Positions 19,583 to 44,272 of a stretch of DNA of 63,735 nt are shown here, piece after piece. Position 1 is the stretch's first letter. The number at the start of each line of letters is the position of its first letter. This stretch comes from a virus (taxonomy: Duplodnaviria; Caudoviricetes). A program made the translations under genes and the position numbers. Location of the stretch: positions 1 to 63,735 of IMG/VR virus record IMGVR_UViG_3300045110_000325. One strand, 5' to 3'. Below the pieces are notes generated by a model. It searched no databases and was not told where the DNA came from. It worked only from the letters and a program-made list of their open reading frames with translations.

Positions 19583-20014
19583 ATGCGGGACGAGGAGCAC
19601 GCGCGCAGGCTGGCCGCCGGCCGCTGGGTGCGTGACGCGCGCGTCCGCCGGGGTTTTCAGCATCAGACAGAGCTGGCGCAGGCGCTGAACGTCCACCCGT
19701 CGCTCGTCTCGGGCATCGAGCGCGGGCACGCTCCCGTGTCCGTCGAGGTCGCGCAGCGGCTGGCCGGCGTCCTCCACATGCCGCTGCTGGAGGTGTGGCG
19801 AAGCGTCGGCCTGCCGTTGCCGCCCGGCATCCCGGACGACCAGCTGGGGGACTACCCCCTGGCGCGGCACAACCTCAAGGACCACGAGTACGACGCGCTG
19901 ATCGCAGTGCTGCGGGCGCTGCGCGGCGAGGACGCCGCGGCCATCCTCGCCGGCCAGGACGCCGCCGACGAGCCCGAGCCGTCCGACCCCCGCCGCCGCG
20001 GCGTGGCCGGATGA
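19583..20014 (+). CDS. immunity repressor (XRE HTH)
   Basis: QTELAQALNVHPSLVSGIERG; divergent from cro. Confidence 0.8.
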   Translation: MRDEEHARRLAAGRWVRDARVRRGFQHQTELAQALNVHPSLVSGIERGHAPVSVEVAQRLAGVLHMPLLEVWRSVGLPLPPGIPDDQLGDYPLARHNLKDHEYDALIAVLRALRGEDAAAILAGQDAADEPEPSDPRRRGVAG

Positions 20015-33519: not shown

Positions 33520-33884
33520 TGCCTGAGACCGGGAGCGACCTGCCCCTGGTCGAGCGCTGGCCCGAGGACACCACGTGCGCGTTCGGCGACGAGCCCGCCG
33601 TCGCCGAGGTGTCGTTCTGCTTCGCCAACGCCGACCCGCCGGACCGGCTCGTGCCGCTGTGCGCCGAGCATCTTGACTGCGACCAACTGGTGTTCACGCC
33701 GTCCGCTGTGGCGGCGCTGCGGCCGGACCTGGGCATGCGCGTCTCCCGCGACTCCTGGGACCGCATCCGCGCGCTCGCCGCCTCCTGGGACGCCATCGAC
33801 CGGACCGTCTTCGTCGAAGCCTGGGGGATGTGCAGCCGGGACCTGACGCGCCTGCTGGGCGAACTGGAGGACCACGATGCCTGA
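33516..33884 (+). CDS. hypothetical protein
   Basis: C ... LCAEH; coupled to neighbours. Confidence 0.5.
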   Translation: MMPETGSDLPLVERWPEDTTCAFGDEPAVAEVSFCFANADPPDRLVPLCAEHLDCDQLVFTPSAVAALRPDLGMRVSRDSWDRIRALAASWDAIDRTVFVEAWGMCSRDLTRLLGELEDHDA

Positions 33885-34341
33885 GACGCCTCTCACCGTG
33901 CGGGACGCCGCAGCGTGGGCTGGCGTCACCCCATCCACCTGGCGCTCCTACGTCGCACGCGGGCAAGCCCCCGCCGCGGACGGACACCTAGGCGCGACTC
34001 CCTACTGGCACGAGTCGACCGTCCGGGCATGGCTGGACAACCGCCCAGGCCAAGGCCGCCGCACCTGGGGGCTTTGGACCGTCGAGACCGACGCCACCTA
34101 CGACCAGGCGCAATCAGCCACGGGCATCCCGGCCAACCGGTGGTCAACGGCGGGCCGGCGCGGACTGGAGCTGACCACCGGCGTGTCCGAGGCGGTCGAG
34201 GCGGCGCTCGCTCTCCGGTCCGCAGGCCGGGTCGCGTGGCTCACCCCCGGTCCCGGCAAGGTGCCGCCCGCAGACTTCGCGCTCGTGGCCGGCTACGACC
34301 GGCTGACTTGGGACGCCCGCCTCAAGGCCAGCTACACCTGA
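33877..34341 (+). CDS. AlpA/MerR-like HTH regulator
   Basis: LTVRDAAAWAGV.PSTWRSYV.RG.AP..D...P.W...TV..W...RPGQG. Confidence 0.8.
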   Translation: MPETPLTVRDAAAWAGVTPSTWRSYVARGQAPAADGHLGATPYWHESTVRAWLDNRPGQGRRTWGLWTVETDATYDQAQSATGIPANRWSTAGRRGLELTTGVSEAVEAALALRSAGRVAWLTPGPGKVPPADFALVAGYDRLTWDARLKASYT

Positions 34342-34345
34342 GCGC

Positions 34346-34864
34346 TCAGCTTCCCAACAGCCGGGTCATGATCCCGACGATCTCCTCGCCGTAAGTCGGC
34401 GACGGCGCCCACAACCCACCCAACTGCTCAACGGTCGGCGCGGAGCCGAACCGCGGCCCGCCCGGCCAGACGTAGACCGCGCGGGGGTCGGGGGAGTCGT
34501 CCGGCGAGTCGTAGCCGGCGGGGACGCGGCCGGCGTAGAGGGACAGGTGGTCGGCGTGGGCGCGCGCGCCGGTCGCCATGTCGGGGAACAACGCGTGGTC
34601 GGCTGTCGTGTCGCCGGTCGGGTTGCGCACCTTGAGGCCGCACGGGTTGTTCATCGACGGGGTGACCGCGCCGCCGAAGCGCCCCCAGCCGGTTTCCTTC
34701 GCGCATTGCGCGACCAGGACCACCGGGTCGACGCCGACGGCCAGGCCGGCAGCGGCGAGGTGCGGCAGCGCGCTGAAGAACCACGGCGAGGCGGTCGCTG
34801 GTATGTCCTCGTAGTGGATGACGTGGGCCGGCCCCGCAAGGAGGATCGAAACCGGCCGAGTCAG
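34346..34864 (-). CDS. glucosaminidase (GH73-like) domain, reached by -1 frameshift from the amidase
   Basis: G.DP.V..AQ..KETGWG.FGG...NNPCGLK, F.D...G..AH, L.G.WAPS..YG; no canonical start before the conserved core. Confidence 0.75.
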   Translation of the reverse strand: MTRPVSILLAGPAHVIHYEDIPATASPWFFSALPHLAAAGLAVGVDPVVLVAQCAKETGWGRFGGAVTPSMNNPCGLKVRNPTGDTTADHALFPDMATGARAHADHLSLYAGRVPAGYDSPDDSPDPRAVYVWPGGPRFGSAPTVEQLGGLWAPSPTYGEEIVGIMTRLLGS

Positions 34865-34870
34865 TTTCCC
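34806..34870 (-). other. -1 ribosomal frameshift signal (G_GGA_AAC, 6-nt spacer, pseudoknot)
   Basis: Heptamer 34864-34870; S1 34857-34847/34836-34826; S2 TCCTC/GAGGA. Confidence 0.75.
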
Positions 34871-35721
34871 GGGCTCGCCGGAAGCGCGGCCTTGATCTCA
34901 GTGACGGTGGCAAGGATCAGCGTGAGCGCGTCTTCCATCGCGGCGACGCGCTCGGCCAACACGGCCTGCGACTCGCCGAACTTGACGACCATGCCGCTCA
35001 ACGCGTCGGCCTTCCGGGACGCGGCGTGGGAGTTGCTCGCGGCCCACTCGGCGAGGTCGCCCATTCGGACCGCAGTGTGCCCCAACTCGGTCCTGGCCCC
35101 GGTGCCCAGCTCCTCCTCGCGGTTCCACACGTCGTTCGCGTCAGGCATGTCGGCGACCTCCAGGATCACGATCGGGGGGGCTTCGGCGGCGACCAGCGGC
35201 AGCGCCGCGCGGAGCACGGGGCCGGGGCATTCGGTGTCGCCGAAGATGGAGTGGGGGACCACGCGGGTCGCGCCCGGCGTCCGGCTGAGCGCCTTGGCCC
35301 GACACCAGCGCATCCCCTCCACCAGCGCCGGCGTGACCTGGCCGTCGTCGTTGCCGAAGACGACGAGGACGGCGTACCACTCGTCGTTCTCGCTGCCGGC
35401 GAGGTTCGGGTTGTCCTGCCCGGCGGAGCGCCGGTCGAAGGTGCGGCAGGGGTAGACGTGCGCCTGGCCGGCCACGTCGGCGACGGCCCACTGGTAGGCG
35501 ATGTCGCAGTACCCGCGGCCGCCTTCGGACCGGGGGTTCATGTGGTCGTCCTGCCAGCCCCGCAGCCTCGAGCAGACCTGCGCCTCGGTGAGGCCGAGGA
35601 GCGTCCCGGCGCTGCCGGGGTGGTGGTAGACGACGCCCCTGATCCCGGACGTGGCCATGGCGGCGCATCCCGTGCCGGCGCGGCTGGTCCAGTCGGAGCG
35701 GGTGTGAACGACGACGGTCAT
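34861..35721 (-). CDS. endolysin, N-acetylmuramoyl-L-alanine amidase (PGRP/Amidase_2) with helical C-terminal domain
   Basis: R.DW, VYHH, Q..HM..RGY.DIAY, PH....TECPG. Confidence 0.9.
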   Translation of the reverse strand: MTVVVHTRSDWTSRAGTGCAAMATSGIRGVVYHHPGSAGTLLGLTEAQVCSRLRGWQDDHMNPRSEGGRGYCDIAYQWAVADVAGQAHVYPCRTFDRRSAGQDNPNLAGSENDEWYAVLVVFGNDDGQVTPALVEGMRWCRAKALSRTPGATRVVPHSIFGDTECPGPVLRAALPLVAAEAPPIVILEVADMPDANDVWNREEELGTGARTELGHTAVRMGDLAEWAASNSHAASRKADALSGMVVKFGESQAVLAERVAAMEDALTLILATVTEIKAALPASPGN

Positions 35722-35745
35722 CGATGCCTCAACTCCTCTCGGCGG

Positions 35746-36051
35746 TCACATCGCCTGCCGTTGGATGCGGTCGAGTCCGAGCTCGGCCAGGGCGCGGACC
35801 TTCCGGCCGAACGTCCGCCGGAACGCCCACGGCGGCTTTGGGTCGGCCTTGAGGAGCCGGTCGAGGTAGGAGTGGACCGCGCCGTGGGCGTTGGAGCACA
35901 ACGGCACCCGGTTCGCCGGGATGTCAGGCTCGCCATGCCCCAAAGGCCAACAATGATGGACCTCGATCGGCACCCACTCGCGGTGCCGGTGGACGGCGCA
36001 CGCCTTCGGGGCTTTCGGGACGGTCACAGCCACAGGACCGCCGCCGCTCAC
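35746..36051 (-). CDS. HNH endonuclease
   Basis: HH.WPL..G...N.V.LC.NAH..VH. Confidence 0.75.
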   Translation of the reverse strand: MSGGGPVAVTVPKAPKACAVHRHREWVPIEVHHCWPLGHGEPDIPANRVPLCSNAHGAVHSYLDRLLKADPKPPWAFRRTFGRKVRALAELGLDRIQRQAM

Positions 36052-36386
36052 TTCGGCCGAAGCGCGAAGTACAGGCCGACGAGCACGCCGATCGCGCCGA
36101 TGACAGCGATGACCCGCGACATCGGCGACCACGACTGCTCCACCTTGTCCCGCCGCGCCTCCTCCGCGTCCTTCAACGCGGCGGCGGTGGTCACAACGGT
36201 CGCGTCCCGGGCGACAGCCTGATCGCCGAGACGCTGCACGGCCAACTTCAACCCGTGCAGCTCCTCCGCGATCTTCTCCAGGCTGCCATTGATGGCCTCA
36301 AAATGCTTGTCATGGCCTGCGAGCCGGGCTCCGATCTCCCCGGCCACAGCGCCCCGGTCATAGGCCTCCTGCGGCGTCTCGCTCAC
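36048..36386 (-). CDS. coiled-coil protein with C-terminal TM (lysis accessory)
   Basis: HDKHF..INGS; terminal hydrophobic helix. Confidence 0.65.
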   Translation of the reverse strand: MSETPQEAYDRGAVAGEIGARLAGHDKHFEAINGSLEKIAEELHGLKLAVQRLGDQAVARDATVVTTAAALKDAEEARRDKVEQSWSPMSRVIAVIGAIGVLVGLYFALRPK

Positions 36387-36387
36387 G

Positions 36388-36717
36388 TCAGCCGCCTCCG
36401 CAGGTGTCGCGGATCTCCGCGACGACCCGGTCGTTGTCACCGGTGAGCGAGCGGACCGCGTCGGCCATGCGACGCTGCCCGTCCCGGTAGCAGCCGCCGG
36501 CGACATGCCACCCCGTCGCCACGACCCTGACACCGGGGGTGGTGCAGTCGTACAGGCGGAACGCGACCGCGCCGCCGACGACCGTGCCGCAGAGAGTCAG
36601 GACCACCAGGCCGATGACCCACGCCTGCCGGCGTCTCAACCCTTGGACCGCTCCGGCGAACTCCCGTGTCGCGGCGCCGAGGCCGCTGACGGCTGTAGCC
36701 AGGTCGCGCTCAGGCAT
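36388..36717 (-). CDS. single-TM protein with Cys residues (lysis accessory)
   Basis: TM followed by DCTTPG..CY. Confidence 0.6.
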   Translation of the reverse strand: MPERDLATAVSGLGAATREFAGAVQGLRRRQAWVIGLVVLTLCGTVVGGAVAFRLYDCTTPGVRVVATGWHVAGGCYRDGQRRMADAVRSLTGDNDRVVAEIRDTCGGG

Positions 36718-36848: not shown

Positions 36849-37217
36849 TCACGTGTCACGCCGGCTGTCTGCTCCCTCCGCCCTGGCGGCAGCGATCTCG
36901 TCGTCGTGTCGCTGACGGGCCAGGAACTCGCGGTACGAGGCAAGGGTCTCGGCGGTGGAGGCCAGCGCCGGCCCCACCGCCTGGTACACGGCCAGCAACT
37001 CCGCCTTGTGCTTCTCGGCCTGCGTCAGGAGCCGGTCAGACAGCTCCTCGACACGTTTCTGCAGCGCCGCCCGCTCGGCCTCGGTGCGGGTCCACTGCCG
37101 GCCGGCGAACACCAGGCCGAGAGTCGCAATGAAACCGACGACGCCGTAGCCCAAGAAGGGGGACAGATCCCCTGGGGGAGTCTCGGTTTGCAGCCACCAC
37201 AACGCGAGCGCAGGCAC
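36849..37217 (-). CDS. TM + coiled-coil protein (holin-like)
   Basis: YGVVG TM segment followed by heptads. Confidence 0.6.
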   Translation of the reverse strand: MPALALWWLQTETPPGDLSPFLGYGVVGFIATLGLVFAGRQWTRTEAERAALQKRVEELSDRLLTQAEKHKAELLAVYQAVGPALASTAETLASYREFLARQRHDDEIAAARAEGADSRRDT

Positions 37218-38193: not shown

Positions 38194-39462
38194 TTATATC
38201 GCTAACGCGTTCTGGCCGAGGACGCCCAGCGTGGACGAGCCCAAGACGAACCCGCCCCACTTCGTCGCGGACTGCAGCGTGAACGTCACCCGCCACCGGG
38301 CGGGGCTCGCCGACCACTCGTGCTCGACGCCTCGGATGAACACGTCCCGTTGGATCGCCGATCCTGTCGGCGGGCGGCGGATGATCGTGATCCGATCCCC
38401 GATCTCCCGGGACAGCACCGCGGGCCACAGGTTGTCCGGGTCGCGCAGCGGCTCCACGGACAGCGCCGCGAACCGGTACTCCGGATCTTTCGACTGCGAC
38501 ACGACCCAGTTCGCGTAGGACAACGCCACCGAGTCCGTCTGCATGATCAGGTCGGACCGGTCGAACGAGCGGGTCAAGTTCGCGGTCTTGCTCGCCACGT
38601 CCTGCGCGACCTGCTCCGTCCCGCCGACCCGAGTCACCCTGGCGACGTTCACCAACTGCTCGTCGTCGTATTCCGGGACCACGTCCTGGTACTTCAACTC
38701 CCCCGCGTTGTCCCCGAAGGTCGCCTGGGAGGTCGCCGACCGCGCGTCGGTGAAGATCGCCTGCCGGTTGCGGAAGAACGCGCGCCCGCCGGAGTCGATG
38801 TAGAACTCCCCGAGTTCCGTGTCCGCCGTGAGTTGCAGCTCCTGCAGAGCGTTGCCCTCCAGCGTGGTCGCCTGCACCGTCGTGTTCCCGGTGGCCACCA
38901 ACCGGTCCTCGCTCGGCCAGTCCGCTGAGTTGAGAATCCGGTCGACCCGAGTGCCCGAGTCCTCGCCGGCTCCAACCGCGGCCCCGGCGGCGCGGTCCAC
39001 CTGCCCGAGCACCTTGAACCCGTCGGTGGCGGCGACCGTCGTCTCCGCGTACCGGGGCTTGGTGTATTCCGTGGTCCACGAGTCCGCGAAACCCCGCCAA
39101 ATGTTGTAGGTGACGCCGGCCCACGTCGCCCGCAGCCGCACCACCCTCATCGGGCGGACCTGCGTCACCCCGCCCGACACGTACGGCCCGGCCAGGTTCG
39201 ACGCGTCGAACCTGCGGTCGTCGTCGCGGAGCACCAACGACGCGTTGCCCGCGCCGTAGGAGACCACCGGGGACGACACCCGGTCGGAGCCGCGCCGGGT
39301 CGTGAAAGACCGCAGCCACGGGGTCACATCCGTGTACGCCTGGCCGTCACCAAGCGTGCCCGTGCCGAGGAGTCCCCGCGCCGAGTCGCCCAAGTGCAGC
39401 AACGTCCCCGACGACGCGCCGATCCCGAACCCGACCTCAGCGATGATCGTCGGCTGCTGCAT
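38194..39462 (-). CDS. minor tail (hub-like) protein
   Basis: Directly after TMP; DVT..R..RG..G...L...D.RFD; F.LG....G.LG...L C-terminus. Confidence 0.8.
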   Translation of the reverse strand: MQQPTIIAEVGFGIGASSGTLLHLGDSARGLLGTGTLGDGQAYTDVTPWLRSFTTRRGSDRVSSPVVSYGAGNASLVLRDDDRRFDASNLAGPYVSGGVTQVRPMRVVRLRATWAGVTYNIWRGFADSWTTEYTKPRYAETTVAATDGFKVLGQVDRAAGAAVGAGEDSGTRVDRILNSADWPSEDRLVATGNTTVQATTLEGNALQELQLTADTELGEFYIDSGGRAFFRNRQAIFTDARSATSQATFGDNAGELKYQDVVPEYDDEQLVNVARVTRVGGTEQVAQDVASKTANLTRSFDRSDLIMQTDSVALSYANWVVSQSKDPEYRFAALSVEPLRDPDNLWPAVLSREIGDRITIIRRPPTGSAIQRDVFIRGVEHEWSASPARWRVTFTLQSATKWGGFVLGSSTLGVLGQNALAI

Positions 39463-42400
39463 CAGGGGCGGATCTTCAGCCGAATGCCGCCGTTGCTCCT
39501 CGCGTACGCCTGCAGCTCGTCGACGAGCTGCTTGACGTTCTGCACGCCATGCAGAACCAAGTCGCCGTGGACGACGACGCCTCCGCCCCCGCTTCTCGGC
39601 ACCACCGTCTCGCCCGCCTGGAAACCGTAGGTCCGCCCCGAGCGGCCGACGCCCATGATGTCCTCGGTGATCGGCCCCCCGCCGTGGTACCAGTGCGGGG
39701 AGCGCGACGACCACTTGGCGTACGCGTTGACCGGGTTTCCATACGAGCCCTTGATGTAACGGCCGGTGTACACAGCCTGCAGATACGGGTCGAAAGTCTT
39801 GTGGCCGCCCACTGTGGCCCAAGTGCTGTCCAGGAACTGGCCAATTCCGAGCGCGGAGCTTGTCGGGTTTTGGGCGGTGTTGCGGAAACCGGACTCGCCC
39901 ATGAGCAGCCTGTACGCGGCGTTCCACTGACCACCCGACCAGCCGAACATGCTCGCGAAGACCTGCTTCACCAACGCGGCGTTGCCTGACACGTTCGACT
40001 GCGCGCCCAGAGTCGCCGCGCCATCGCCGCCAGCACCCCCAGCGCTGCCGAGTGCCTTCTGCAGGCGGTCCGGCAGGTCGGACAACGCCCGCACGATGCC
40101 CTGGTACGGCTGGCCGGAGACGACCAGCGGGACCGTCGCCGACGGCCGCACCGGGCCGCCGCGAGCATAACCCCCGGCCAGCACGGCCTTGCGCATCCGC
40201 CGCACGGACTGATGGCCGCCAGCGGCCCGCACCTCCTTGGCGGTCCACATGTGCTCACCGGCGCTGGCCCAGATCGGCACGTCATCCGACGTGCCCGTCC
40301 CCGGGCCAGTGATCGCCCCGCCGGCCGCCTTCTTGCGGCCCGCCATGGCAAGCTCCTGCTTCACCAGGGACGTGGCCTGCGCCTTGGAGATGTGCGCCGA
40401 CTTCCACACGTGGTCGATGCGGGCATTGAGATTGTCGAAGCCGTGGATGGCGTCCTTCAACCCAGGCGTCGACACCTTGACCTTCAGGTCAGACGGGACC
40501 TTGAACATCTGCTCAAGCAGCTTGTGCGTCTCCGTCTTCGAGTACCCGGCCTGGATCGCCTGGTTCTCCAGATCCTTCTTCTGCTGCCGGAGGCTCGCGT
40601 TCACCACGTCAACGGACTTGCCGGCCGCCCTGTCGGCTTTCGCCTTCGCGTAGGCGGCGTCGACCGCGGACTGGAAAGCCGCGACGTTCTCCCGGCCCGC
40701 CGCGGTCATGATGTTCAACGAGTGCGACCCGACCTCGCCGGCCCGTTTCTGCGCCGCCGCGACGTTGCGCGCCGCGTCCGCGACCGCCCTAGCCGTGTCC
40801 TGCTGCGCCTTCGCGATGCCGCGCTGCGCCTCGGCGACCGCCCTCGCCGAGTCCTCATGAGCCTTCGTCAACGCCACCCGGGCGTCACGCGCGGCCCCGT
40901 CCGCGGACGTGACCGCTTTCTGCGCGGCGACCACCGCCGGGGTGGCGTTGACGCCCTCGCGCTCCACCTTGTTGCTCTCCCGCACCGCCTGGGCGCGTTC
41001 CCGCTGCGCGTCGGAAAGGCTGTCCTGCGCCAGCGCCAACGCCAAGATGGCCTCGCGGCGGTCCAAATCCGTCGACTTGGCGTCCTTGTTGACCTCCTTC
41101 AGCCGCTGCTGCGCGCGCAGCACCTGCAGAGTCGCCCCCTCCTCTGCGAGCAGAGCGTCGTCGACGGTCTCCTTCAAGTCCCGGAGCTGGCCGGCGGCGT
41201 CCCTGCGGGCCTGCGTCAAAGACCGCTGCGCCTCCCGCTGCCGGTCCTGCGCGCCGGTCAACGCCTCCTCCGCGGACCGCACCGACTCCGCGCCCGCCTT
41301 GTACGCGTCGCCCAGGGCGCGCTGCGCCGATGTGATCTGCTCCGCGCCCGAGGACTGCGCGTCCGCCAACGCCCGCTGCGCGTCGCCCACCTCCCGAGAA
41401 GCGTCAGCCGCCTCCCGGGACCGGTCGCCGAGCTGATGCAACGCCGCGTTCCACGCCGAAGTCGAGGACACCGCGTCCCGACCAGTCGAGGCGATCAGAT
41501 CCAGCCCCGACGCGTAGGCGCCAGCCGCCTGCTGGTTGTCCAGCAACACGCGAAGGCTCTTGTCGACAGCAGGGGTCAAGCCGAGGCCCAGCGCCTCCGC
41601 CGCGGCCTTCGCCTTCTGCGCGGTCTCGTCGAGTTTTCCGCTCAGGTTGCCGGCCGCGTCGGCGTGGGCGTTGGTCGCGCCCGCCGCGACCTTGTCGACC
41701 TCCGCCTTCTCCCGGGTCTTGTCCAACGCCTTGCCCGTCGCCTCAGACTCGCCGTGGATGCCCTCCTTCACCGCGTTCAACGCGTCCAGGCGCTCGCTGC
41801 TGACCTGCCCCGTCAACTGCAAGTGCGCCTGCTCCTGGCGGATCTGCTCGTCGATGATCCCGGTGACGCGCTTGCGCGCGTCGCCCTCGTTCAGGGTGGC
41901 GGCCAGGACATCCTTCGCCGCGATCCCGAACTGCGCCGCACGCTGGATGACCTTGTCCTGCGCGAGCGCCTGCGCCACGTACTCGCGGGTCGTCCCGCCG
42001 ATCGCGCCGCCGTCCTGCTCGATGGCGGCCGTCAGCGAGTCGATGTGGTCCTTGGCACGCTTCGACGCCGCCGCGAACAGGCCGACCCCGGCGGTCGCGC
42101 CCACAAGCGCGACACCCCACGGCCCGCCGAGGAACCCGGCCAGGCCGCCAGCGGCCCCGCGCAACTTGCCGACCGAGCTGGCCGCCGAGCCCATCGCGAA
42201 CTTGCCGCTCGCGGTCTGGGCGGCGACACCGGCCGTGGCGATCCCCGCCGCGGCCGCCTCCGCGTCCGCGCCGACGACCAGCAACGCCTTGCCCGTGCGC
42301 AAGCTGCTGATGCCCAACTGGTCCATCGCCGTGCGGACCGCGCCCACGCCCTTGCCCGCGACAACCAAGCCGACCAAGCCGAGGACAGCAGCCTTCGCGA

Positions 42401-43538
42401 CATCGTTGGACGCGATCGTGGCTATGCCCTTCGCGACCGCCTGAATCGCCGGAGCCGCGTCGACAAACGCCTTCGTCAGCTGCAGCTGGACGGGGAGCAG
42501 GCCAGCGCCAAGCTCCGCCTTGGCGTTCTCGAACTCGGCGGTGGCGATCCGCTGCTGGTTGGCGAGGCCGCCGGACGTGCGCGCGAAGTCGCCAGCCGCC
42601 GCGCCCGTCTGCTTCAAGATCAAGCCGTACGTGGCCTGCGCCTTGATCGCCGGGGTGATGTCGGCCTTGGTCTTCGCCAGGCCAGACCGCAGCGCCTCCT
42701 GCTCGACGGCGGCGGCGGTGATCGCGAACCCGAACCGCTGCAGCGGGTCGAACTCGCCGGCCAGCGCGGACTGCAACGCCCCGAGCATCTCCTCCGGCGA
42801 CGCGTTGTTGAAGCTCGCCAGGTCGCCCGCGGTCTTGACGAGCTGGATCGACATCTTCGCCGAAGCCTTGTCCGTCAACCCCAGGTTGTGGAACAAATTG
42901 CCAAAGTTGCCCGCCGCGGTGAGCGCCTGGTTCTGCGACTGGCCCAGCGACTTCGCCGCGGACTTGCCGAAGGCGATCACCGCGGTCGCCGAGTCACCGA
43001 AGACCACCCGGGTCTTGGAGGTGGTCTCGTTCAAATCGGACGCGGCCTTGATCGACTCGCCGCTGAGCTGGGCCATCTTGCGGAGCGCGCCGACCGCGAC
43101 GACCCCCGCGCCAAGCTTCCAAGCGGCGCCCGTGAGCGTGGCCGCCTTTGACTGCCTGTCACCCAGGTCGCTGACCGTCAAAGCGGCGCGTTTCTGCTCG
43201 CCGGTGAGCTTCGACTGGGCGGCCAGGGTGTCCCGGCTGGACGACGCGACGCCGCGCTGCGCCTTCGCCAACTGCTCCTCAGCGGCGACCAGCTGCGATG
43301 TCTTCGCCTTGCCTGACCCGCGCAGGTCCGCGAGTTTCGCCTCCGCGGCCCGCACGCGGCCGGACGCGTCCTTCTCCCGGTCCTGCGCCTTCGCCAGGTC
43401 CAAGGTGGCGGCCTCGAGCGCCTCCACCGACGTGGCCGCCGTCTTCGCCGCTCCGCCGAGCGTTTTGAGGTCTCTGGCCCCCGACGCCGCGCCATCGACC
43501 TCAAGGAGGAGCTGCAGCTTCTCGGTTGTCGTCCCCAC
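39462..43538 (-). CDS. tape measure protein with C-terminal lytic-transglycosylase-like domain
   Basis: 1358 aa Ala-rich; AS.LNE..SK, GE.DPL; GPGTGTSD; ESG...AQNP.SSA.G.GQFL..TW. Confidence 0.92.
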   Translation of the reverse strand: MGTTTEKLQLLLEVDGAASGARDLKTLGGAAKTAATSVEALEAATLDLAKAQDREKDASGRVRAAEAKLADLRGSGKAKTSQLVAAEEQLAKAQRGVASSSRDTLAAQSKLTGEQKRAALTVSDLGDRQSKAATLTGAAWKLGAGVVAVGALRKMAQLSGESIKAASDLNETTSKTRVVFGDSATAVIAFGKSAAKSLGQSQNQALTAAGNFGNLFHNLGLTDKASAKMSIQLVKTAGDLASFNNASPEEMLGALQSALAGEFDPLQRFGFAITAAAVEQEALRSGLAKTKADITPAIKAQATYGLILKQTGAAAGDFARTSGGLANQQRIATAEFENAKAELGAGLLPVQLQLTKAFVDAAPAIQAVAKGIATIASNDVAKAAVLGLVGLVVAGKGVGAVRTAMDQLGISSLRTGKALLVVGADAEAAAAGIATAGVAAQTASGKFAMGSAASSVGKLRGAAGGLAGFLGGPWGVALVGATAGVGLFAAASKRAKDHIDSLTAAIEQDGGAIGGTTREYVAQALAQDKVIQRAAQFGIAAKDVLAATLNEGDARKRVTGIIDEQIRQEQAHLQLTGQVSSERLDALNAVKEGIHGESEATGKALDKTREKAEVDKVAAGATNAHADAAGNLSGKLDETAQKAKAAAEALGLGLTPAVDKSLRVLLDNQQAAGAYASGLDLIASTGRDAVSSTSAWNAALHQLGDRSREAADASREVGDAQRALADAQSSGAEQITSAQRALGDAYKAGAESVRSAEEALTGAQDRQREAQRSLTQARRDAAGQLRDLKETVDDALLAEEGATLQVLRAQQRLKEVNKDAKSTDLDRREAILALALAQDSLSDAQRERAQAVRESNKVEREGVNATPAVVAAQKAVTSADGAARDARVALTKAHEDSARAVAEAQRGIAKAQQDTARAVADAARNVAAAQKRAGEVGSHSLNIMTAAGRENVAAFQSAVDAAYAKAKADRAAGKSVDVVNASLRQQKKDLENQAIQAGYSKTETHKLLEQMFKVPSDLKVKVSTPGLKDAIHGFDNLNARIDHVWKSAHISKAQATSLVKQELAMAGRKKAAGGAITGPGTGTSDDVPIWASAGEHMWTAKEVRAAGGHQSVRRMRKAVLAGGYARGGPVRPSATVPLVVSGQPYQGIVRALSDLPDRLQKALGSAGGAGGDGAATLGAQSNVSGNAALVKQVFASMFGWSGGQWNAAYRLLMGESGFRNTAQNPTSSALGIGQFLDSTWATVGGHKTFDPYLQAVYTGRYIKGSYGNPVNAYAKWSSRSPHWYHGGGPITEDIMGVGRSGRTYGFQAGETVVPRSGGGGVVVHGDLVLHGVQNVKQLVDELQAYARSNGGIRLKIRP

Positions 43539-43557: not shown

Positions 43558-43833
43558 ATGCGGACAGTCATGGTCGCTGCCGTCATCGCGTCAGCGACCC
43601 TTGCCCTCGGATGCCAAAGCAGCGACGACACGGCAGACAAATGCGCCGCCATCCGGCACGCCATCGTCACCGACAAACAGCAGGTCATAGACGCGATGCA
43701 GGCAGGGGACGAGATGTCGGCCGCGAGGGCGCGGGTCGACGTTGACGCCGACGCCCGCGCGGCGCGCGACCCCGCCGCGGTCGGCGGCGTCTGCGACATC
43801 GACGACCTGGTGGGACCAGGCGTGGGCCGCTAG
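43558..43833 (+). CDS. antisense lipoprotein (moron-like)
   Basis: Signal peptide with lipobox LALGC; TACCCT -10 just before ATG. Confidence 0.7.
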   Translation: MRTVMVAAVIASATLALGCQSSDDTADKCAAIRHAIVTDKQQVIDAMQAGDEMSAARARVDVDADARAARDPAAVGGVCDIDDLVGPGVGR

Positions 43834-44272
43834 CCGGCCTGCGCCTGCGCCGCGTCCATCAGCAGGAACAGGTCCCGCCACGAGTGCTGACGGACAACAG
43901 AGGGCGGCCAGCCGAAACGGCGGACCGCCCACACCACTAAGTCGTCGCCGGTTCTCCCGGCTCCGATTTTGGGTCGACCACGGGCAGCCCGTCGACCCAC
44001 TCGATCGGCCGGTCGTGGTCGTCGACGAGCTCGAACGCGTCGACCATCTGCCGCGCGGTCATCGCGCCGACCCGCTTCGCGGCCTCGGCCTTGCCATGAG
44101 TCCGAGCGGAGAGCGCGGTGAGGATCGCCCGCGCATGCTTCGCCGTCTTGACCGGGGCGGTGACGACGAACCACCAGTCGTCCTCGACGGCGGCCTCGAT
44201 CTCGCACGTCTCGTCGACGGTGAGGTCTTCGGACAACCACGACTTGCCGTCGAGGGTGACACGGAACGGCAT
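43830..44272 (-). CDS. tail assembly chaperone: short form 43937-44272, long form by -1 frameshift to 43830
   Basis: C_CCA_AAA at 43967-43973; -1 frame continues IGAGR..FGWPPS.V....WRDL. Confidence 0.8.

Follow-up and report, generated by a model that had tools for sequence, protein, structure and literature searches.

We describe the junction between an endolysin gene and the glucosaminidase frame that follows it on the minus strand of the IMG/VR viral contig IMGVR_UViG_3300045110_000325, all 63,735 bases of which were analysed and are referred to here as the window. The endolysin gene ends on the heptamer G_GGA_AAC immediately ahead of its stop codon, and the -1 frame that overlaps this end encodes a GH73 glucosaminidase with no start codon of its own. 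Judging from sequence comparison, we consider it likely that a conserved programmed -1 frameshift at the end of the endolysin gene is the sole route to this glucosaminidase in a few deep lineages of high-GC phages. Four members share the layout and the register of the heptamer, the heptamer is conserved among them with a compensating change, and they have no start codon in common. The elements of the junction in the window are as follows.

35721..34861, minus strand: upstream endolysin open reading frame (ORF) in the 0 frame, 286 amino acids, beginning with ATG at 35721 and ending CCG GGA AAC TGA.
34870..34864, minus strand: slippery heptamer G_GGA_AAC in the 0-frame register, with GGA in the P site and AAC in the A site.
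34863-34861, minus strand: 0-frame stop codon TGA, directly after the heptamer and overlapped by the -1 codon CTG (34864-34862).
34864..34346, minus strand: coding part of the -1 frame, GH73 glucosaminidase, 172 codons from the junction, with its stop at 34348-34346.
34723-34721, minus strand: first canonical start codon in the -1 frame, GTG, at residue 59, after the core helix 38-54.
34857-34847 and 34836-34826, minus strand: GC-rich hairpin of 11 base pairs (three of them G-U) with the 10-nucleotide loop ATCCTCCTTG, 6 nucleotides past the heptamer.

Between 34897 and 34349 the -1 frame contains no stop codon; it counts 183 codons, 172 of them past the junction, and the two frames overlap by 12 codons ahead of the 0-frame stop. 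It reads CCC GGG AAA CTG ACT CGG through the junction, and none of the 47 codons past the junction is ATG, GTG or TTG. The initial annotation of this stretch had proposed the frameshift, and on re-reading the sequence its heptamer coordinates, the spacer of 6 nucleotides, the 172 codons and the predicted frameshift product of 286 + 172 = 458 amino acids were all correct. It had also placed the first usable start codon inside the conserved core, which holds for the GTG at 34723, as this follows helix 38-54. In the reading that we favour, most ribosomes would read GGA AAC, reach TGA and release a 286-residue protein consisting of the catalytic domain and a C-terminal extension. Others would shift back by one base on the heptamer, with GGG AAA as the new pairing, and would go on through CTG ACT CGG for 172 codons to yield a 458-residue protein of amidase plus GH73 enzyme, slippage perhaps being aided by slow termination at the adjacent stop codon and by the downstream GC stem. 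Because the glucosaminidase lacks a start codon, all of it would come as fusion. The initial annotation went further and supposed that the 458-residue product is a minor one at a fixed ratio to the 286-residue protein, which the comparison does not establish.

Protein-guided scans of viral, metagenome and genome contigs matched 248 loci, 201 of them distinct, and the start-less layout was found in four separate contigs, namely the window, L004 (the same as L075 and L239), L153 and L245 (the same as L260). The upstream ORF of L004 ends in ...ASPGN with a TGA stop, and its junction, GCGAGCCCGGGAAACTGACT, is the same as that of the window over 20 nucleotides. The upstream ORF of L153, a Pfam Amidase_2 (PF01510), ends in ...VTPGN and TGA with the core CCCGGGAAACTGAC, and that of L245, a Pfam Amidase_3 (PF01520), ends in ...ASPPNQ with a TAG stop, its junction reading GCG AGC CCC CCA AAC CAG TAG with the stop one codon past the heptamer. 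The heptamer is thus G_GGA_AAC in three of the four members and C_CCA_AAC in the other, and its register is kept identical in all four of these start-less homologues. The -1 frame opens 6 codons ahead of the 0-frame stop in L153 and about 5-7 codons ahead of it in L245, where the opening lies four codons before the heptamer and no NTG codon occurs from there to the conserved N-terminus PVPIAGRPS (PVPILGPAS in L004; family consensus IPIIxxPS). The first canonical start codon after the junction comes at 47 (window), 17 (L004), 34 (L153) and 12 (L245) codons, so that no start position is conserved; the ATG of L153 falls inside helix 38-54 and the GTG of the window after it.

The four glucosaminidases are about 47-55% identical, and the enzymes upstream of them belong to four families: phrog_1493 in the window, phrog_29733/17214 in L004, Amidase_2 in L153 and Amidase_3 in L245. 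The upstream proteins of the window and L004 are unrelated in BLASTP at E=1, and the 4-12 kb flanks of the other start-less loci gave no match to the window beyond the glucosaminidase. The end of the extension, the slip site and the glucosaminidase therefore appear, on comparison of these loci, to behave as a mosaic module behind four amidase families. All three complete members have an unbroken -1 frame of 170-186 codons, and that of L153 stays open for 87 codons, up to the edge of its contig.

Normal-start relatives often overlap the preceding gene through ATGA (L003 and L010), GTGA (L008) or TGATG (L002 and L005), so that the glucosaminidase is normally a free-standing gene coupled to the one before it. 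Because most relatives are stand-alone genes with their own ATG or GTG, the frameshift layout appears to be a feature of a few deep lineages and not of the whole family. Two relatives known as protein calls, P0018 and P0059, are probably further start-less members. Among more distant relatives, mostly from low-GC contigs, L011, L012, L013 and many other loci carry the GH73 domain within an in-frame fusion of 380-550 amino acids that has an Amidase_2 or Amidase_3-like N-terminus. No close relative was found by blastn against deposited phages or by two pattern scans of viral contigs. A tblastn search of deposited phages returned 19 records, only distant lysins of Firmicutes phages and all under 60% identity. 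The exact 15-mer scan of viral contigs gave 9 stretches, of which 1, on the L004 contig, was real, and the degenerate junction pattern gave 4, namely 2 known contigs and 2 chance matches.

We compared 27 distinct high-GC loci of the stand-alone type as a control set, projecting the family N-terminus onto each and scoring heptamers of the class X_XXW_WWN. An in-register heptamer within 5 codons of the projected N-terminus was present in exactly 4 of the 27, and in those same 4 loci ATG, GTG and TTG are absent from the frame opening to 8 codons past the N-terminus. Among the other 23, a canonical start codon lies within 8 codons in 20, none of these 20 normal-start loci has a slippery heptamer near the junction, and L089 has its start codons further upstream. 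The remaining two, L125 (Ga0137369_10378973) and L070, have neither a canonical start near the projected N-terminus nor a heptamer, the projection being unreliable at their distance; L125 resembles a secreted bacterial GH73 protein with a signal-peptide-like stretch. In L229, A-rich heptamers lie 55-67 codons upstream. Across the likely coding frames of the window there are 5 in-register X_XXW_WWN heptamers per 10,784 codons, which corresponds to a chance expectation of 0.0056 in the 12-codon overlap of the window and about 0.003 in the overlaps of L153 and L245. Counted regardless of register, the word GGGAAAC shows no enrichment, with 4 occurrences against an expectation of 5.1. The weight is carried by register, place and conservation, and not by word frequency.

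The identity of the downstream enzyme was assessed by profile search, structure prediction and alignment.

34762..34361, minus strand: Pfam PF01832 Glucosaminidase domain, residues 46-179 of the 183-codon frame.

The PF01832 match scores 43.7 bits in the window against a cut-off of 30.2 (40 bits in L004). An AlphaFold model built from the family alignment reached a predicted local distance difference test score (pLDDT) of 89.7 and a predicted template modelling score of 0.85; its first long helix spans residues 38-54, in a block with pLDDT 93-97. The top 10 Foldseek matches of this model are all GH73 enzymes (probability 0.98-1.00, template modelling score about 0.43-0.50), and GH73 matches include Auto 3fi7, FlgJ 2zyc/3vwo/3k3t/5dn4, AtlA 7qfu, LytB 7pj3 and 4qdn. 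Glu68 (34696-34694) is invariant in 34 of 34 aligned sequences, and the Glu of its ETGWG motif aligns with that of AQSALETGWGR in 4qdn and of HETGNG in 5wqw; we take the conserved Glu of the (A/H)ETG motif to be the catalytic acid. The proposal of a GH73-like glucosaminidase in the -1 frame is thus borne out by a Pfam match above threshold, by the fold and by the conserved Glu. Besides the window's own gene call we found 71 relatives, nearly all of 131-190 amino acids, and the window enzyme shows about 50-58% identity to stand-alone proteins some 172 amino acids long. In an alignment of 33 relatives the proteins begin MIPII..PS, with the Met opposite residue 13, 1-2 residues past the junction. 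G+C at codon positions 2 and 3 ahead of the first canonical start codon is 0.53 and 0.87 in the window (47 codons) and 0.53 and 0.91 in L153. This GC signature at third codon positions, the family N-terminus and the modelled helix 38-54 together indicate that the codons ahead of the first canonical start belong to the coding sequence and are required. The gene call of the window itself, P0001, runs from an internal start and has 125 amino acids; P0018 and P0059, called from an internal Met at 137 and 131 amino acids, are about 40-45 residues short.

The protein encoded upstream matches the 'endolysin' family phrog_1493 over residues 3-173 (E 5.9e-8) and, weakly, the PGRP-domain structures 4z8i and 4zxm over residues 7-108 (E about 1e-4). 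It matched no Pfam family, including PF01510, at E up to 1. The label 'amidase' given in the initial annotation is therefore backed by the PHROG match and the weak PGRP match and lacks support from Pfam. A single relative was found, P0074, which is 69% identical over the catalytic part and has a different C-terminus without the PGN ending.

35166..34864, minus strand: C-terminal extension of the upstream protein, residues 186-286, ending PASPGN.

All four upstream proteins carry an extension of about 75-100 amino acids; these extensions are 15-23% identical and have the common ending P[AV][ST]P[GP]N. The single-sequence model of the window protein is of too low quality to show the catalytic domain (pLDDT 40), and within it the extension is confidently helical only over residues 251-280 (pLDDT 80-94). 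An acidic motif resembling D/E-D/E-M-x-x-E opens the extensions of all four lysins (35166-35100 in the window) and that of P0074. It stands just past the catalytic domain and may mark a linker or module border that these lysins share.

As the window is a contig of metagenomic origin, and in-frame amidase-GH73 fusions of 400-530 amino acids are known among low-GC relatives, a one-base insertion or deletion introduced by assembly or sequencing might have split a single in-frame amidase-glucosaminidase gene. The contig has an estimated completeness of 77% and a G+C content of 69.8%, and its terminase shares about 39% identity with the terminases of Mycobacterium, Gordonia and Arthrobacter phages, from which we take it to be a divergent actinobacteriophage. 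All public runs that hold the contig are labelled soil metagenome, and there were no RNA runs among those listed. A second assembly from Logan (run X1; a 33-kb contig at depth 13) showed 0 differences and 0 gaps against positions 34300-35800, so that the junction is identical base for base; this contig is possibly from the same sample as the window and checks the assembly, not the biology. Run X2 contained only small unrelated pieces. The identical frame change stands in the identical place in three further contigs (L004, L153 and L245), and this recurrence is a stronger argument against an error than the second assembly. We regard an artefactual frame change as refuted as far as present data allow, with a probability close to nil.

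Could the glucosaminidase be translated without any frameshift? Ribosomes that end at TGA might reinitiate on the overlapping CTG (CTGA), a non-canonical and weak start codon, and make a separate glucosaminidase. The geometry would be the same as that of the ATGA, GTGA and TGATG overlaps of the normal-start relatives, most family members are stand-alone proteins, the product of a CTG start would have 172 residues, within the usual family size of about 170-176, and CTGA is found in three of the four start-less members. However, L245 has no NTG of any kind at its junction and stops at TAG, yet has the start-less layout and the conserved N-terminus, and since the heptamer is present in all four members a CTG start cannot be the shared mechanism; the possibility raised in the initial annotation that the glucosaminidase starts by itself at CTG or ATC cannot explain this member. 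Moreover, where TGA directly follows the heptamer, CTG is the only xTG codon possible that is not a canonical start. Its presence follows from a start-less frame combined with TGA and is not independent evidence of CTG initiation. Reinitiation also leaves unexplained the in-register XXXYYY ahead of the junction in every member, for which 0.003-0.006 would be expected per junction. No Shine-Dalgarno-like sequence is visible by eye at a workable spacing, and a stem of -19 to -22 kcal/mol lies 4-5 nucleotides past the CTG, against -7 to -16 kcal/mol in 8 normal-start relatives. On balance we find initiation at CTG improbable.

Translation might instead begin at the first downstream canonical codon, the GTG at 34723 in the window, to give a shortened protein, the heptamer being incidental. 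Gene callers did choose such starts (P0001, 125 amino acids; P0018, 137; P0059, 131), and with a GTG 12 codons past the junction in L245 and 17 in L004 a slightly shortened protein would be possible there. The position is, however, not conserved among the four members, initiation at the window GTG would remove helix 38-54 and the ATG of L153 lies inside that helix, the stretch skipped carries both the coding signature at third codon positions and the conserved family N-terminus, and no Shine-Dalgarno-like sequence is seen by eye ahead of GTG 34723; we think an internal start very improbable. Marginally less probable again, in our estimate, is that the downstream frame is a decaying or silent remnant, or that the junction is the recombination boundary of a mobile lysin module. 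The mosaic arrangement would fit this, in that the glucosaminidase and the junction alone are common to otherwise dissimilar loci with four different amidases. However, the frame has stayed intact over its full length in the three complete members, and open over the 87 codons available in L153, despite about 50% divergence, the residues of the catalytic motif are invariant, and a recombination boundary does not predict a change from GGG to CCC with the register kept.

Besides the CTGA overlaps and the nearby GTG codons of L245 and L004, several results weigh against a frameshift. At the DNA level the start-less members number four, and no longer, fused close relatives of the glucosaminidase were found, which is weak evidence. 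According to the accessible parts of two publications, shifts from AAC to AAA are poorly tolerated in E. coli (PMC4066793; PMC5009743), and if the host shared these limits, the yield of glucosaminidase would be very low. The RNA downstream of the slip site also adds less than had been proposed. The stem follows the spacer TGACTC, and its description in the initial annotation (11 base pairs with three G-U pairs, a loop containing TCCTC and a GAGGA 15 nucleotides further on) was accurate. A stem built on GCCGG...CCGGC is found 5-7 nucleotides past the heptamer in all four start-less members, and in three of them it is the stem of -19 to -22 kcal/mol referred to above. Set against 45-nucleotide windows of the genome, however, its stability does not clearly stand out, at percentiles 6 (window), 7-10 (L004), 13 (L153) and about 50, thus median, in L245. 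Folding z-scores for the whole region are -0.8, -0.4 and +0.1, and a search at the junction matched no Rfam family. The stem sequence also encodes a conserved peptide and so may be kept for the protein. Four sequences do not suffice to assess covariation, and the GC stem is compatible with a stimulator of frameshifting without being evidence for one.

34811-34806, minus strand: CGAGGA, proposed as the pseudoknot partner of the hairpin loop, 15 nucleotides after the stem; not supported.

Pairing between the loop and this downstream sequence amounts to 6 base pairs in the window, a length reached by 115 of 2000 shuffles, and to 2, 3 and 5 base pairs in L004, L153 and L245, which is chance level. 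We therefore rejected the H-type pseudoknot of the initial annotation, a pairing of the window only; of the frameshift as first proposed, joining an amidase to a start-less glucosaminidase, the layout, the register and the conservation in four contigs stand and the pseudoknot falls. GAGGA at 34810-34806 was also tried as the Shine-Dalgarno sequence of a hidden start and discarded, there being no near-cognate codon at usable spacing in the glucosaminidase frame. Transcriptional slippage was rejected as well, as the longest homopolymer runs at the site are 3 nucleotides.

Other publications, each as far as its text was accessible, bear on the E. coli limits and on the heptamer itself. The review by Atkins ties the A_AAG preference of E. 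coli to its single lysine tRNA (PMC5009743). GGGAAAC is the annotated tail-chaperone slip site of Microbacterium phage Trackstar, at 69% G+C (PMC13460127), and GGGAAAC directly before TGA is a predicted frameshift site in Burkholderia phage KL1 (PMC3483164).

The evolutionary placement of the start-less layout was examined with a maximum-likelihood tree of 81 rows. The start-less lineages form three successive branches, consisting of L004 with P0018 (support 99/93), of L245, L153 and P0059 (100/100 and 98/82), and of the window, all outside a clade of 63 rows supported at 99/94. Within that clade, the 8 loci checked at the DNA level all have ATG or GTG and 33 proteins begin at the family N-terminus; its two short calls, P0017 and P0039, lie outside the DNA check. 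As the start-less lineages are three deep branches, the layout has been kept over long divergence. The tree is rooted by midpoint only, so that the direction of change is not fixed, and one gain and one loss make the simplest history. A bolder scheme, which we hold to be doubtful, is that of a portable recoding cassette, able to stand behind any amidase, whose products co-assemble through the extension and whose frameshifted form is ancestral to the stand-alone gene. The ribosome would then set the ratio of the two products, short and long forms would make a mixed lytic complex through their shared extension, and the stand-alone gene would have arisen from the frameshifted form by gaining a start codon at the overlap. 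If true, this would be the first endolysin built by recoding, and it would parallel the heteromeric endolysins that other phages produce through internal starts.

One of the five in-register heptamers in the window is the phage's own tail-chaperone site, which looks like a textbook -1 site and may serve here as an internal reference.

43830-44272, minus strand: tail assembly chaperone pair, an ORF of 111 amino acids with C_CCA_AAA 11 codons before its stop.

The heptamer of this pair lies at 43973-43967 (minus strand), its -1 frame continues for 47 codons with a typical ...WAVRRFGWPP...SWRDL... extension, and the pair stands just upstream of a tape measure gene of 1358 amino acids (39462-43538, minus strand). 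Near its C-terminus the tape measure protein shows by eye a lytic transglycosylase motif, ...GESGF.N.A.N....A.GIGQF... The other three heptamers are CCCAAAC at 16658-16652 (minus strand), 244 codons before the stop and with a -1 frame open for 71 codons; GGGTTTT at 19651-19657 (plus strand), with a -1 frame open for 129 codons in a region of long open frames on both strands; and GGGTTTG at 45655-45649 (minus strand), with a -1 frame open for 28 codons. Around the lysin gene, the glucosaminidase stop (34348-34346, minus strand) and a plus-strand ORF of 154 amino acids (33877-34341) converge with 4 nucleotides between their stops, which leaves no space for an intergenic terminator. Directly upstream of the lysin lies an ORF of 128 amino acids (35746-36132, minus strand) in which an HNH nuclease motif, HHCWP...N..PLC..AH..VH, is seen by eye and for which no Pfam match was found at E up to 0.01. 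It overlaps the end of an ORF of 161 amino acids (36048-36533) that has a hydrophobic C-terminal segment, and small ORFs with membrane-like segments farther upstream (36388-36717 and 36849-37217) are possible holin candidates.

Among tailed phages, programmed -1 frameshifting is a textbook property of the tail chaperones and also occurs in certain capsid and tail proteins, whereas endolysin diversity is put down to domain shuffling, to split genes and to internal starts. The lysin of the window would extend this familiar mechanism to a gene class for which we found no earlier description. Full-text literature searches, which covered few subscription journals, returned no description of a two-enzyme endolysin joined by a frameshift. 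The word 'frameshift' occurs 0 times in a 2022 screen of more than 3,000 endolysins for genes encoding two polypeptides (PMC9430671) and 0 times in the accessible part of a 2012 survey of mycobacteriophage endolysins, by whose account glucosaminidase activity seems to be absent from all the enzymes it covers (PMC3314691). In 300,000 characters of a 2016 review of recoding, the count for 'endolysin' is 0 (PMC5009743). Streptomyces phages of cluster BI are described, in the excerpt available, as having putative frameshifts in genes near their endolysins (PMC9671017).

If the favoured reading, a programmed frameshift, is correct, recoding joins the ways in which phages build and dose their lysis enzymes, a second catalytic domain being accessible here through a slip site alone. 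Glucosaminidase gene calls that are cut short in metagenomic phages (P0001, probably also P0018 and P0059) would then be accounted for, and annotators would have reason to look for X_XXA_AAC where the preceding lysin gene ends. Such loci would in addition provide natural X_XXA_AAC sites from high-GC hosts, where the slippery-sequence rules of E. coli may not hold.

The nearest printed item appears, from the accessible text of its genome announcement, to be the prediction for genes 39/40 of Alteromonas podovirus vB_AspP-H4/4, where a -1 frameshift likewise starts in an endolysin gene; it is the only such prediction that the searches returned. Unlike here, the shifted product is described as an internal virion protein, the host is Gram-negative, and the prediction takes up one sentence and is not backed by comparison (PMC5658483). 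Closest in their outcome are the internal-start endolysins CTP1L, LysIME-EF1 and phi2638A, in which, according to the portion of the source available, one locus gives a long and a short product with a shared part and the two products co-assemble (PMC9430671). The two products of those lysins start at different codons of one frame and have the stop codon and the C-terminal wall-binding part in common, whereas the choice in the window would be made at the gene end by predicted recoding, with the shared part N-terminal and the second part having a stop of its own. In-frame amidase-glucosaminidase lysins, such as the low-GC relatives of 400-530 amino acids and P0058 (PF01832 with PF01520), combine the same pair of activities without recoding and exist as fusion only. 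The stand-alone high-GC GH73 genes resemble the window glucosaminidase in sequence (50-58% identity), in their position beside a lysin gene and in overlap geometry, and differ in having their own ATG or GTG and in lacking a slippery heptamer near the junction, which 0 of 20 such loci show. Transposons of the IS3 family also use a -1 shift to fuse two domains in overlapping frames, orfA and orfB, the second without independent initiation, as far as the accessible text of the source goes (PMC13313380); there the product is a transposase with regulatory logic and the site is usually of the A_AAA_AAG type, whereas here two peptidoglycan hydrolases are joined. The layout itself is most familiar from tail chaperones of the lambda G/GT type, which also carry X_XXY_YYZ a few codons before a stop and a start-less downstream ORF that is made as fusion only. 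In contrast to these, the gene concerned here encodes a lysis enzyme, and the extension added by the predicted frameshift is a complete catalytic domain that is free-standing in most of its relatives.

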